Shown: positions 39,062-42,991 of the stretch, one piece after another | Layout: each line of letters opens with the position of its first letter | Position numbering within the stretch: the stretch's first letter is position 1 | Assembly: GCA_016939335.1 (NCBI GenBank) | Contig: JAFGHC010000039.1 | Coordinates: 2,376 to 66,375 of the forward strand | Origin: Candidatus Saganbacteria bacterium | GTDB lineage: Bacteria; Margulisbacteria; WOR-1; O2-12-FULL-45-9; XYB2-FULL-48-7 | Length of the DNA: 64,000 nucleotides | Reading direction: 5' to 3' | Translations under genes and position numbers: made by a program | Notes under the pieces: model-generated | Database searches by the model: none | What the model saw: the letters and a program-made list of their open reading frames with translations, nothing else | What the model was told of the DNA's origin: nothing

Positions 39062-39526
39062 ATGGCCGAACGGATGACCCAGGAGAACTACGACAAGATC
39101 GGGCAGAAGCTCGCCGCGCTCAAGAAGCGCCGCGCCGCCATCTCCAAGACGATCGGCGAGGCGCGCGAGCACGGCGACCTGCGCGAGAATTCCGCTTACC
39201 ACACCGCCAAGGACGAGCAGGGGCTCAACGAGATGCGGATCCGCGAGCTGGAGGCCAAGCTGGCCGGCGCCACGATCGTCGACAAGAGCGAACTGGCCGC
39301 CGCCGGCTGCGTCACGCTCGGTTCGACGGTGCGGATCAAGGCGCTCGACACCGGCCAGGAGTTCGAGTACGCCATCGTGGCCGAGGACGAGGCCGACGTC
39401 CTGGAGGACAAGATCTCGACCGCTTCGCCGATCGGCGGCGCGGTCGTCAACGAGCCGGTCGGCGCCGTCGTCGAGGCCGAACTGCCGCGCGGCAAGGTCA
39501 AGTTCAAGGTCCTCGAAATAAAATGA
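39062..39526 (+). CDS. greA: Transcription elongation factor GreA
   Basis: AREHGDLRENSAYH.AK.EQ, ISTASPIG. Confidence 0.95.
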   Translation: MAERMTQENYDKIGQKLAALKKRRAAISKTIGEAREHGDLRENSAYHTAKDEQGLNEMRIRELEAKLAGATIVDKSELAAAGCVTLGSTVRIKALDTGQEFEYAIVAEDEADVLEDKISTASPIGGAVVNEPVGAVVEAELPRGKVKFKVLEIK

Positions 39527-40296
39527 CAATACTTCAGTCGGTCGTGCTCGGTGTCGTCCAGGGGATCGCCGAATTCCTCCCGATCAGCAGTTCCGCCCAC
39601 CTTGTCTTCATCCCCTGGCTTCTTGGCTGGCCGGAACATACGCTCACCTTCGACGTCGCCCTCCATCTGGGGACGCTCGTTTCCCTGCTCGCCTTTTTCT
39701 GGCGTGAGTGGTGGGGGATCATCAGGGGCAAACTTGTCTGGCTGCTTCTCCTCGGCTCCGTCCCCGGCGCGCTCGCGGGGGTGCTGGGCGAGAAATATTT
39801 TGAGGAGACTTTCCGCGGTCCGGTGACGATCGCTGTTTTCCTGATCAGCCTCGGCTTGCTGCTCTGGGCGGCCGAAGTCTTCAGCCGGCGCCGGCGTGAG
39901 TTGGCGTCGGTCGGCTGGCTCGACGCGGGGGCGATCGGCCTGGCGCAGGCGCTGGCGCTGATGCCGGGGGTGTCGCGCGCCGGCATCACCATGACGGCCG
40001 GCCTTTTCCTGGGACTCAAGCGGGAGACGGCCGCCAAATTCTCTTTTCTCCTTTCGGCGCCGATCATTCTCGGGGCCGGACTGTACAAAAGTTACGGCCT
40101 CTTCAAGCACGGCGGCCTGCCGGCCGATGAGCGCATGCCGTTCCTCGCCGGCCTGCTCACCGCCGCGCTGGTCGGCTTCTTTGCCATCAAATATCTTCTC
40201 CGCTATCTGCAGAAGAACACTTTTTATCTCTTCATCTGGTACCGGCTGCTGGTCGGCGCGGGGTTGATTGCGCTGGTTTTGCTTAGGCTCCGTTGA
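39523..40296 (+). CDS. uppP: Undecaprenyl-diphosphatase
   Basis: QGIAEFLPISSSAH, ALMPGVSRAG. Confidence 0.95.
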   Translation: MTILQSVVLGVVQGIAEFLPISSSAHLVFIPWLLGWPEHTLTFDVALHLGTLVSLLAFFWREWWGIIRGKLVWLLLLGSVPGALAGVLGEKYFEETFRGPVTIAVFLISLGLLLWAAEVFSRRRRELASVGWLDAGAIGLAQALALMPGVSRAGITMTAGLFLGLKRETAAKFSFLLSAPIILGAGLYKSYGLFKHGGLPADERMPFLAGLLTAALVGFFAIKYLLRYLQKNTFYLFIWYRLLVGAGLIALVLLRLR

Positions 40297-41305
40297 TCGC
40301 CCGGATCAGTTCGTTCAGCCGCCCGTAGCTCTCCCGGTCGAAGCGCATGACGAGGCGCGGCAGGTCGGGCAGGTCTTTGTCCTTGAGCTCCTCGGCGGTC
40401 GGCCCGCCCGCTTCGATCTTCCCCCCGGTCAGCAGATCGGCGAACTTCTTGTTCAATTGCTTAAGTTTGGCCGCCGGCAGCGGCTGGTTGAGCCGGAGCA
40501 CGGTCAGCGGCCCGACGTAGCGGAGCGAATTGTAAACGCTGTAAAAATCGAGTATTTCCTTAACTGCCGCTTTGGCCGAGTGGACCAGCGTGAAAAGCTT
40601 GAGGTCATGCTTGGCGATGAAGCCGCGCCGCGCCATCTCGCGCCTGATGAAGTTCAGCCACCCCCGCCAGAAGCCCCAGCGCGGCTCGATCAGGACGATG
40701 GGGCGGGGGACGCTCTTGCCGGTCTGGTAAAGCGTCAGCATCTCAAACGCCTCGTCGCAGGTGCCGAAGCCGCCGGGGAAAAGGACGGTGGCGTTCGATT
40801 CCTTGACGAAGATCAGCTTCCGGTCGAAGAAGTATTTGAACGAGATCAGTTTTTCGCACCGCGCCACGTAAGGGTTCGGCTTTTGCTCGTGCGGCAGACT
40901 GATGTTGACGGCAAAGCTCCGGCCGCCGGCGCCGCAGTTGCCCGCCGCCATTGCCCCGCCGCCCCCGCCGGTGATCACCAGGTAGCCGGCCCGCGTGATC
41001 AGCCGCGAGAACTCGGCCGCCATCCGGTACTCGGCCGAGGCCGGCTTGATCCGGGCCGAACCCCAGACGGCGACCTTGGGGACGCCGCGGTACTGGCGGA
41101 AAACGCGGAAAGCGTGGCGCAGCTCCTTGAGCGAAGTGTTGAGGAGGCGCAACTCGTAACTGTCGGCCCCGTCGAGGTGGAGCTTGACGACCGAAGTGAA
41201 CATTTGCCGGATCAACTCGGCCGTCGCCGGCGCGCTGTATTTTTCCGCCAGCGCCCCGATCTCCCGGTCGATCTCCGCTTGCCCGGTCGCGTATTTGCCG
41301 CGCAT
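40283..41305 (-). CDS. LOG family (TIGR00730-like) protein
   Basis: VAVWGSAR, ITGGGGGAMAAGN, FPGGFGTCDE. Confidence 0.9.
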   Translation of the reverse strand: MRGKYATGQAEIDREIGALAEKYSAPATAELIRQMFTSVVKLHLDGADSYELRLLNTSLKELRHAFRVFRQYRGVPKVAVWGSARIKPASAEYRMAAEFSRLITRAGYLVITGGGGGAMAAGNCGAGGRSFAVNISLPHEQKPNPYVARCEKLISFKYFFDRKLIFVKESNATVLFPGGFGTCDEAFEMLTLYQTGKSVPRPIVLIEPRWGFWRGWLNFIRREMARRGFIAKHDLKLFTLVHSAKAAVKEILDFYSVYNSLRYVGPLTVLRLNQPLPAAKLKQLNKKFADLLTGGKIEAGGPTAEELKDKDLPDLPRLVMRFDRESYGRLNELIRAINGA

Positions 41306-41320
41306 TACTATAGTATATAA

Positions 41321-41451
41321 TAATCAAATCACAAATAACAAACAATACCAAATTACCGGAATTCGAATGACTAAAACAGGCAACGTTTATTTCATTGGGT
41401 AATTGTGGTTTGGGATTTGTTTGTTATTTGATGCTTGTGATTTGTTATTTT
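41321..41451. repeat. Family C MITE-like element, copy 2
   Basis: aatcaaatcacaaataacaaacaataccaaatt...tttgtttgttatttgatgcttgtgatttgttattt. Confidence 0.85.
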
Positions 41452-41465
41452 GTTATACTGGCCCC

Positions 41466-42779
41466 ATGGTTGGCATGGATAAACAGGCCGCTCTTGACGC
41501 TTGCCTGACTCGCCTCGGGATCAAACTTTCCGATGTGGTGGAGAAGTTTATCCATTCGGGCGGCCCCGGCGGCCAGAACGTCAATAAGGTCGCCAGCGGC
41601 GTCTATCTCAAGCATCTGCCGACCGGCCTCGAGGTCAAGATGAGCCGCGCCCGCTCGCAGGCGCTCAACCGCTTCCTCGCCTGGCGGCTGCTGGCCGACA
41701 AGCTCGCGGCCCGGCTCCTCGGCAAGAAGAGCGCCGAACGGGCGAAGGCCGAAAAACTCCGCCGCCAGAAGCGCCGCCGCTCCCGCCGCGCCAAAGAAAA
41801 AGTTTTGCGGGAGAAAAAGCTGACCGCCGAAAAGAAACGCCTCCGCCGGCGGCCGCTCTTCTTGCTCTGTCTGGCCGTCCTGCTGACCGCGGCTGCCGCC
41901 TGGGCGGCCGTCCCGTCACTGGCCGGCCTGATGCAGCGCGATTATCACGGACGCGATCTGCAGCTGAAAAAAGTCCTGGCCGAGAACAACGTTTACACCC
42001 GCTATCTCATCACTTACAAAAGCGATGACCTGACGATCTCCGGCATCATGAATTTGCCGAAGGGGAAGGGGCCGTTCCCCGTCCTGATACTTAACCACGG
42101 CTTCATCGATCCGAAAATCTATACGAACGGCCGCGGCTTGAAGCGCGAACAGGATTATCTGGCGCGCCGTGGTTATATAGTGATTCATCCCGATTACCGC
42201 AATCACGCGTTTTCCGATCAGGACCCGGACGACCTGGCCGGCTTCCGGCTCGGCTACGTCATCGACGCGATCAACTGCGTCATGGCGGTCAAGGGGAGCG
42301 ACAAGCCGTATTTCAATAAGGAGAAGATCGGGCTGCTGGGCCATTCGATGGGGGGCGGGGTCGTCCTGAACTTTCTGGCCGTGAAACCCGGGCTGGCCAA
42401 AGCGGCGGTCCTTTTGGCGCCGGTCAGCGCCGATTACCGCGACAATTTCACCCGCTGGCTCTGGCGGCGCAAGCGCCATCCGGAAGTGGCTGAAAGAATC
42501 ATCGCCGAATACGGCTCGCCCGAATCAAACCCCGCCTTCTGGGCCGGCCTCTCGGCCGTCAGTTACTTAAATAATGTTAAGGCGCCGGTCATGCTCAACC
42601 ACGGCACCGCCGACGAGTCCGTCCCCTTTGACTGGTCGGTCCGGCTGGAAAAAGAGCTGAAGGCCCGCGGCAAAAGCGTCGTCTTCTACCGGTATCCCGG
42701 CGAGCGCCACGAGTTCGGCCCGCAGTGGCCGCTCATGATGGCGCGGATCGTCAAGTTCTTTGACGGATATTTAAAATGA
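41466..42779 (+). CDS. Fusion: GGQ release-factor-like (ArfB/C12orf65 type), signal-peptide-like segment, S9-type alpha/beta hydrolase
   Basis: SGGPGGQNVNK, RSQALNR, basic tail, LFLLCLAVLLTAAAAWA, then GHSMGG, HGTADESV, GERHEF. Confidence 0.85.
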   Translation: MVGMDKQAALDACLTRLGIKLSDVVEKFIHSGGPGGQNVNKVASGVYLKHLPTGLEVKMSRARSQALNRFLAWRLLADKLAARLLGKKSAERAKAEKLRRQKRRRSRRAKEKVLREKKLTAEKKRLRRRPLFLLCLAVLLTAAAAWAAVPSLAGLMQRDYHGRDLQLKKVLAENNVYTRYLITYKSDDLTISGIMNLPKGKGPFPVLILNHGFIDPKIYTNGRGLKREQDYLARRGYIVIHPDYRNHAFSDQDPDDLAGFRLGYVIDAINCVMAVKGSDKPYFNKEKIGLLGHSMGGGVVLNFLAVKPGLAKAAVLLAPVSADYRDNFTRWLWRRKRHPEVAERIIAEYGSPESNPAFWAGLSAVSYLNNVKAPVMLNHGTADESVPFDWSVRLEKELKARGKSVVFYRYPGERHEFGPQWPLMMARIVKFFDGYLK

Positions 42780-42991
42780 TGATCAGCGTCCGCGTCGTCC
42801 CCCGCGCCAGGCAGAATAAAGTTGTTGAAGAAGCGGACCGCTTGAAAGTTTATTTGACCGCTCCGCCGGTCGAAGGGAAGGCGAACGAAGCTTTAATTGA
42901 GGTTCTAGCCAAGCACTTCGGCGTCAAGAAAAGGCGGCTGCGCCTCCTCCGCGGCGAGAAGGGCCGGGACAAGGTCGTCGAGCTTCAGTAG
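42776..42991 (+). CDS. DUF167 (YggU) family protein
   Basis: VRVVPRA, APPVEGKANEAL, GEKGRDK. Confidence 0.9.
   Translation: MMISVRVVPRARQNKVVEEADRLKVYLTAPPVEGKANEALIEVLAKHFGVKKRRLRLLRGEKGRDKVVELQ

Follow-up and report, generated by a model that had tools for sequence, protein, structure and literature searches.

A C12orf65-like GGQ Factor Joined in Frame to a Secreted Hydrolase in a Candidatus Saganbacteria Genome

Introduction

Why should a release-factor-type GGQ domain and a secreted hydrolase share one open reading frame (ORF), and is such a protein a conserved design, a recent accident of gene order or an error of assembly? The question is raised by a 64,000-nucleotide stretch of contig JAFGHC010000039.1 from a Candidatus Saganbacteria bacterium (assembly GCA_016939335.1; the whole stretch is called the window here), in which an ORF at 41466-42779 on the + strand encodes both parts in a single chain. 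The source genome (G000) is a 1.53-Mb bin of 42 contigs, 95% complete, and the window belongs to its contig C13. The explanation that best accounts for the locus, and a fairly probable one, is that two genes which are separate elsewhere were joined in frame in this one genome, most likely through a recent local rearrangement. The sections below describe the parts of the frame, the place where they meet and their distribution among relatives, and then weigh this explanation against its rivals.

Architecture of the Fused Frame

The frame is free of stops from 41403 to the TGA at 42777-42779, and from the ATG at 41466 it comprises 437 codons plus that TGA. This ATG matches the N-terminus of free-standing relatives in alignment (MIGPDKQ.. 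against MVGMDKQ..). Only one Pfam family, RF-1, is found on the N-terminal part (residues 18-112, 74.9 bits, cut-off 35), and the C-terminal part matches Peptidase_S9 (PF00326; residues 227-436, 71.8 bits, cut-off 22.6) as well as other alpha/beta-hydrolase models. The chain begins with the GGQ domain (RF-1, the release-factor peptidyl-hydrolase domain; 41517-41720, residues 18-85), whose GGQ motif occupies residues 35-37 (41568-41576). It is followed by the basic C-terminal tail of the GGQ factor (41721-41855, residues 86-130), which contains 24 Lys or Arg and 5 Asp or Glu in 45 residues. Next come a hydrophobic core and an AWA motif that are now internal (41856-41906, residues 131-147, LFLLCLAVLLTAAAAWA). 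The hydropathy peak of the entire protein lies here, in the 15-residue window starting at residue 131 (Kyte-Doolittle mean 2.71). The remainder is the mature alpha/beta hydrolase (41907-42776, residues 148-437), with a triad assigned by motif position: Ser294 (42345-42347) in GHSMGG (292-297), Asp383 (42612-42614) in GTADES (380-385) and His415 (42708-42710) in ERHEF (413-417). A preliminary description of the locus, drawn from the letters of the window, had reported one uninterrupted ORF made of a GGQ domain, a basic tail, a hydrophobic stretch with an AxA site and a hydrolase, and the frame, the Pfam matches and the motif positions all bear this out.

The public protein collection holds a shorter product. 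There the gene is called as a 282-residue protein from Met156 (P0002; window 41931-42779), without the signal peptide and the GGQ half, and the 437-residue product itself is absent. The internal start at Met156 was rejected, because it loses the signal peptide common to all full-length relatives. A hidden frameshift or stop was also considered, with the TGA at 41821 in the +1 frame as the candidate, and was rejected on the grounds that the zero frame tracks the relatives' tails: the basic tail aligns with those of six free-standing relatives as far as about residue 129-130.

The GGQ Part

The GGQ part is a stand-alone RF-1 domain with a GGQ motif and no PCRF or codon-recognition domain. Its best match among solved structures, with the single sequence as query, is C12orf65/mtRF-R (7a5h_C, 58.7 bits, E 5.7e-15). 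A profile of seven family members matches the same chain with 78.3 bits (E 4.8e-21) over the contiguous positions 18-123, which take in both domain and tail. With this profile, chains of RF1, RF2 and PrfH come next (39-58 bits), followed by ArfB/YaeJ chains (27-31 bits), aligned only over the GGQ loop at positions 18-51, and ICT1 (16-22 bits). The profile aligns contiguously with C12orf65 and with domain 3 of RF1/RF2. The NCBIfam ArfB equivalog model (PRK09256) gives 29.1 bits over residues 16-49, below its cut-off of 100.

Burroughs and Aravind (2019; PMC6514570) divide ArfB proteins in two: "class 1", to which ICT1 belongs, is marked by an alpha-i insert, and "classical ArfB", the more ancestral form, groups with C12orf65. 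As the matches to ArfB, YaeJ and ICT1 cover positions 18-54 at most, the alpha-i insert of class 1 ArfB appears to be lacking here. Because 7a5h_C is the top match and the ArfB matches are weak and limited to the GGQ loop, the GGQ part is, by this comparison of sequences, C12orf65/mtRF-R-like ("classical ArfB") and not an E. coli-type ArfB. The earlier label "ArfB-type" is therefore apt in the broad sense but not in the strict class 1 sense, for which the sub-threshold NCBIfam score and the loop-limited ArfB match argue against it. The accompanying premise, that the tail is inserted into the empty mRNA channel, fares similarly. Such insertion is documented for E. coli-type ArfB (in parts of PMC6514570 and PMC7641280), but the factor that the GGQ part resembles, mtRF-R, is described in a section of PMC8786322 as working with MTRES1 on split large subunits bearing peptidyl-tRNA.

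With C12orf65/mtRF-R (7a5h chain C; mouse homologue 2rsm), the fused protein shares a stand-alone GGQ domain and a positively charged tail, helical in C12orf65; it differs in that its tail leads on to a signal peptide and then to the hydrolase. E. coli-type ArfB/YaeJ and mitochondrial ICT1 also have a GGQ motif, a small size and a basic C-terminal tail, whereas the profile matches to them stay within the low ranges given above. The free tail end typical of ArfB is missing, as 307 more residues follow. One of the free-standing relatives is named "peptide chain release factor-like protein" at NCBI. The GGQ part shows no decay: it departs from six relatives at 2 of the 53 sites that are invariant in them, and the relatives' own range is 0-6. 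Elsewhere, G000 contains a tmRNA (145 bits) and SmpB (183.7 bits), and no match to the NFACT_N domain of RqcH-type proteins reaches the cut-off in this genome. Because tmRNA and SmpB are present, impairment or even loss of a back-up GGQ factor could be tolerable.

The Hydrolase and Its Signal Peptide

The mature hydrolase has 290 residues, with a GxSxG nucleophile elbow and intact triad motifs. These motifs are conserved in 17 aligned hydrolase rows, the Asp and the His being assigned by motif position; a combined alignment (MAFFT) put the GGQ rows on the hydrolase C-terminus, and only the hydrolase rows were used. At this length, the N-terminal beta-propeller of prolyl oligopeptidase and DPP-IV is absent, and DPP-IV chains match through their catalytic domain only. 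The best solved matches are small esterase-type enzymes, namely an MHETase-like enzyme (46.8 bits), cephalosporin C deacetylase and cinnamoyl esterase. The free-standing hydrolases of Margulisbacteria and Saganbacteria (P0003-P0009, about 310 residues) are 83-87% identical to the fused protein over residues ~131-437 and share the triad motifs and the core and cleavage motif of the signal peptide, but have their own start (MKLR or MKFR) and no GGQ domain. In their source records they are named "alpha/beta fold hydrolase" or "dipeptidyl aminopeptidase/acylaminoacyl peptidase", and the organisms of the hydrolase relatives are named Candidatus Margulisbacteria or Margulisiibacteriota.

The pattern of a Sec-type signal peptide (signal peptidase I) is complete, with an RRRP n-region, the core LFLLCLAVLLTAAAA and A145-W-A147, and it aligns with the signal peptides of the relatives. 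Its position is unusual for such a peptide: residues 131-147 lie behind a folded part of 130 residues instead of at the N-terminus.

Anatomy of the Join

The six closest free hydrolases (P0003-P0008, 309-310 residues, 82-87% identity) have a common layout, in which MKLR or MKFR is followed by a hydrophobic core, WA and (E/D)xPSL. Counted back from PSL, their Met corresponds to codon 129 of the fused frame. On the other side, six aligned free GGQ proteins are conserved up to the position of R127 and end after another 4-8 variable residues. Since the hydrolase Met falls at codon 129 and the GGQ tails are conserved to R127, the join is at about codons 129-133 (RPLFL, 41850-41864) as judged from these alignments. 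The GGQ gene has lost its stop and the 4-8 variable residues at its end, and the hydrolase gene has lost its start and its n-region (MKLR/MKFR), whose place the basic tail now occupies. Every conserved position of the tail, the full hydrophobic core and the AWA site are kept. No second copy of the junction stretch is found in the genome, where the longest chance matches are of 16 nt. Alignment of the junction DNA with two relatives (G009 and G008) did not place the breakpoint to the base, as the sequences are too diverged.

Distribution of the Two Parts

When the full protein was searched against 40 relatives, no fusion was found and the two parts matched only at separate places. Residues 1 to ~130 are matched by a gene of about 125-145 residues in 33 of the 40, and residues ~131-437 by a gene of about 310 residues. 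A junction query, consisting of the 160 residues centred on the join, was searched against 146 genomes of the phylum and gave a match in 81. A stop-free match across the whole query exists in G000 only and in none of the other 145 genomes. In G002 and G031, stop-free matches enter the tail part by 12-17 residues, within open frames of 332 and 369 residues; these were rejected as fusions because the frames are too short for both domains. With the full protein as query, the matches in these two genomes begin at residues 113 and 118. Open frames of 721-764 residues in G010, G012, G013 and G014 were rejected as well, the real hydrolase ORFs being of 311-313 residues; in G010 (locus L006), the 311-residue hydrolase ORF is flanked by separate genes. 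A further match to the junction query, in G082 (C46:3926-4297), covers residues 2-126 at 37% identity with one TAG inside, and may represent a GGQ gene followed by an ORF with a similar N-terminal region.

Both parts are present in 19 genomes and are always apart. In 16 of these they are on different contigs, and in the other three they share a contig: in G012 they are 5.6 kb apart with the gene order reversed, in G005 31 kb apart on opposite strands, and in G004 231 kb apart. Seventeen hydrolase loci were examined, drawn from 11 genomes and 6 metagenome contigs. Each hydrolase ORF has 293-320 residues and resembles the window from about residue 149-151 of the fused protein onward, and none has a GGQ ORF as its neighbour. 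A metagenome scan returned 8 loci, none closer than 85% (that one partial) and none with the fusion.

The same holds for proteins at large. Among 1.84 billion representative proteins, the best 150 all match the hydrolase part alone, from about residue 124 onward. An RF-1 domain is found in 0 of 30 longer or second-stretch homologues picked from these 150, whose extra modules are LysM, SLH, Gmad2, DUF192, GDSL lipase, M23, a C39-like peptidase and ankyrin. The LysM, SLH and M23 modules of these homologues and the signal peptides carried by close relatives suggest that the hydrolase belongs to a family of envelope enzymes. The architecture of RF-1 plus Peptidase_S9 put forward in the preliminary description was thus sought elsewhere and found neither in the other 145 genomes of the phylum nor among the best 150 representative proteins; the relatives keep two genes.

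Other Fusions of the Same GGQ Type

Long proteins with the same type of GGQ domain do exist in public collections. Fifteen were found (P0272-P0286, 96-136 bits), all of them in clusters of one member, and their partners are unrelated: a porin-like barrel, ArgRS, a response regulator, an ABC ATPase, enoyl-CoA hydratase, a PCRF domain and others. In seven, an unrelated domain is N-terminal of the GGQ part; in four, the N-terminal (PCRF) part of RF1/RF2 is joined at the GGQ motif; and in four, the GGQ part comes first. The PCRF proteins (P0281, P0282, P0284 and P0285) continue from the PCRF part into a C-terminal half and a basic tail that belong to the small GGQ family, and come from short contigs; they are likely metagenome assembly chimeras formed at the conserved GGQ motif. 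Such chimeras, together with read-through fusions, make up a recurring class of artefact in metagenome protein sets.

Like the fused gene, the 15 proteins are single-copy, single-contig fusions of this GGQ type to a neighbour, but none of them contains its hydrolase family. P0272 does have an alpha/beta hydrolase, of a different kind and on the N-terminal side of the GGQ part. The closest in layout are P0273 (498 residues) and P0276 (496 residues), in which the GGQ domain and tail are followed by a signal-like hydrophobic segment and then by a secreted or outer-membrane-type protein. In P0273, this is an uncharacterised part of about 360 residues; in P0276, it is a porin-like barrel (PF07642) that has retained the Met of its own, downstream gene, as in plain read-through.

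Genomic Context

Upstream of the fused gene, greA (39062-39526; Pfam GreA_GreB_N and GreA_GreB) and uppP/bacA (39523-40296; Pfam BacA) lie on the + strand, and a LOG-like gene (LOG/SLOG-type, 340 residues, 40283-41305; Pfam Lysine_decarbox) lies on the - strand. A spacer of 160 nt separates the latter from the fused gene, which is followed on the + strand by a DUF167/YggU gene (42776-42991; Pfam DUF167, 91.2 bits). In G009, the closest genome that has the hydrolase (85% identity by BLASTP), the order is greA, the hydrolase, whose own ATG overlaps the greA stop, and a DUF167-homologous ORF. The genes greA and DUF167 thus serve as the left and right anchors of synteny, and greA and the hydrolase are separated by uppP, the LOG-like gene and the GGQ gene in the window but are adjacent in G009. 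In G009, uppP follows two genes whose G000 counterparts sit on another contig (C26). The neighbours of the GGQ gene in six relatives match none of the window ORFs of at least 90 residues between 34000 and 47000, and their other matches in G000 are on other contigs. In view of the G009 order and the scattered origin of uppP, the LOG-like gene and the GGQ neighbours, the locus appears to have been rebuilt in this lineage, and the fusion would be one of the new joints.

The uppP and LOG-like genes around the fusion have a patchy distribution. Close homologues of uppP/bacA occur only in G009 (82%) and G018 (70%), with 34-39% identity in 12 other relatives. For the LOG-like gene, a search of five relatives of the same family, which had no positive control, gave no match at E 1e-20.

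Origin of the Fusion

The preliminary description had offered a recent stop-loss or deletion fusion as its alternative, and it is this alternative that is favoured: both halves are intact, the join is near the natural gene ends and the relatives are unfused. A rearrangement would have set a free-standing C12orf65-like GGQ gene directly 5' of the gene for the secreted hydrolase, removing the stop of the former and the start of the latter. One chain would then be made from the ATG at 41466, probably from a leaderless transcript. According to the positive-inside rule, positively charged segments stay cytoplasmic. The GGQ domain, with its strongly basic tail, would thus remain in the cytoplasm, while the hydrolase would be exported by means of residues 131-147, which would serve as an internal signal or signal-anchor. 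The probable outcome is cleavage by signal peptidase after A147 (AWA), which would yield a hydrolase whose mature end matches that of the relatives and would leave the GGQ factor with a hydrophobic membrane stub of 17 residues. This topological logic, with the basic tail as n-region and an inherited cleavable signal peptide, seems reasonable from the arrangement of the segments.

The join is probably real DNA, because a contig from a second assembler crosses the junction without a difference. A sediment metagenome run (X1) holds 87% of the sampled words and is probably the sample from which the genome itself was assembled. Its Logan contig (14232 nt, depth 20), made by a different assembler, covers 41561-42400 with 0 differences and 0 gaps and continues downstream; within it, the junction is thus flanked by 280 nt of the GGQ side and by several hundred nucleotides of the hydrolase side. 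The interval 41840-41910, which the preliminary description had singled out for read support, is spanned in full, albeit at the level of contigs and probably from the same source reads. About 56% of the X1 run was covered, and within this part no contig was found over 41479-41560 or 40700-41396. The break of the Logan contig at 41561 falls in sequence that matches the release-factor genes of G000 itself at 31/33 and 29/31 positions, and contigs of other organisms reach a very high depth there. Three further runs (X2-X4) yielded short pieces only (36-151 nt), with differences and none across the junction, and were not used as support.

Several observations weigh against a recent rearrangement. 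Both halves are undamaged and the 95%-complete genome has no second copy of either, which fits a tolerated or useful fusion equally well. G000 is the sole member of its genus in the set and no relative is closer than 87% identity, so that "recent" means since that split. The evidence for the DNA consists of contigs, X1 is not independent, and minor variants would not show. Finally, the Logan contig ends within the conserved GGQ motif, so that the first 32 codons are tied to the remainder by the submitted assembly and by the synteny of greA and DUF167 with G009.

An artefact of assembly or consensus, in which two real genes lost the bases of a stop and a start or in which strains or loci were joined, is unlikely, and less likely than a recent rearrangement. 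The genome is a metagenome bin in 42 pieces, comparable singleton fusions are known (with 4 of the 15 evident chimeras joined at the GGQ motif), the second contig breaks in that very motif, and the locus differs from that of G009 by three genes of scattered origin. These points speak for an artefact, but the different assembler crosses the junction at depth 20, and no junction repeat longer than 16 nt exists elsewhere in the genome. In addition, each half stays in the frame of its homologues as far as the join, so that at least 6-7 bases would have to be lost from a non-repetitive stretch, and greA upstream and DUF167 downstream agree with the order in G009.

It is improbable, too, that the protein is a selected, working fusion in which the signal peptide acts as a cleavable linker and the GGQ factor is held at the membrane near translocon-bound ribosomes or is released by a protease. 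Such a role would fit two intact halves that are the sole copies in their genome, and a join that keeps the conserved tail positions, the hydrophobic core and AWA. Free GGQ genes are common, occurring in 33 of 40 relatives, and P0273 and P0276 likewise run from the tail through a signal-like segment into a secreted or outer-membrane protein. However, the fusion is absent from all other genomes and protein collections searched, and P0273 and P0276 are single-member cases with unrelated partners, of which P0276 looks like read-through. A search of the full-text literature for ArfB with a signal peptide or membrane anchor, and for Saganbacteria with ribosome rescue, gave nothing relevant and no membrane-anchored ArfB-type factor, the matches to "arfB" being other genes. 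The built-in membrane-tethered or proteolytically released rescue factor of the preliminary description consequently finds no comparative support, as the fusion is unique to G000 and the relatives have separate genes, the very outcome that this description had named as refuting its idea, and a membrane-tethered rescue factor is unlikely from the present comparison. A two-in-one precursor, from which signal peptidase frees a periplasmic hydrolase while the rescue factor, with its basic tail doubling as n-region of the signal, acts membrane-anchored beside translocating ribosomes or is freed by proteolysis, is doubtful indeed.

Start Signals and Expression

In the proposed scheme, the fused gene would be expressed from its own start. 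An extended -10-like element, TGTTATACT (41451-41459, + strand), ends 6 nt 5' of the ATG and has no -35 match, for want of which a consensus promoter scan lists no + strand site at this position. The spacing recurs throughout the genome. Among 1055 ORFs of at least 250 residues, a TAnnnT hexamer ends exactly 6 nt 5' of the first ATG in 57, a clear peak compared with other spacings (23 at 7 nt and 30 at 9 nt). Words of the GGAG type occur in 180 of the 1055 upstream regions, against 54 at a control position. These counts suggest that leaderless transcripts are frequent in this genome. The 6-nt spacing is found at greA (39062), at the LOG-like gene (41305, - strand) and at the fused gene (41466), and at the last of these it makes a leaderless message from its own promoter, translated into one chain, the probable mode of expression.

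The divergent spacer (41306-41465) is AT-rich, with 31% GC, and each of its arms bears a promoter-like module, the two mirroring each other, for the LOG-like and the fused gene. A 34-nt piece of it (~41417-41450) recurs at 92-97% identity on C13, on C28 in several copies and on C42, and in four metagenome runs the contig depths summed over this region are very high.

In frame between codons 59 and 156, start-type codons are limited to TTG 114 and TTG 133, and no Shine-Dalgarno-like or -10-like sequence was found 5' of either, in keeping with the earlier statement that no ribosome-binding site or ATG precedes the hydrophobic stretch. That one frame gives two products, with the hydrolase started at one of these TTG codons behind an ordinary signal peptide and the long fusion minor or unstable, is very unlikely: a start at TTG 114 (41805) would supply a basic n-region, the hydrophobic core and AWA, but both kinds of signal that these codons lack are seen at other starts in the genome, and the hydrolases of the relatives start with ATG or GTG, aligned with codon 129.

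Implications

The finding is mainly a point of annotation and quality. Because the public gene call starts at Met156, this genome's only copy of a widely conserved rescue-type factor is unannotated. In the protein, two known families are combined in a way that is new and has been seen once. Provided that the DNA is correct, the cell's only C12orf65-like factor carries 307 extra C-terminal residues, and its only copy of an envelope hydrolase sits behind a cytoplasmic domain of 130 residues. The locus would then be a natural experiment on two questions: how important the free tail end is in a little-studied bacterial clade of GGQ proteins, and how far Sec targeting tolerates long basic N-terminal extensions. 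Were the two-in-one precursor true, it would be the first membrane-coupled GGQ rescue factor.

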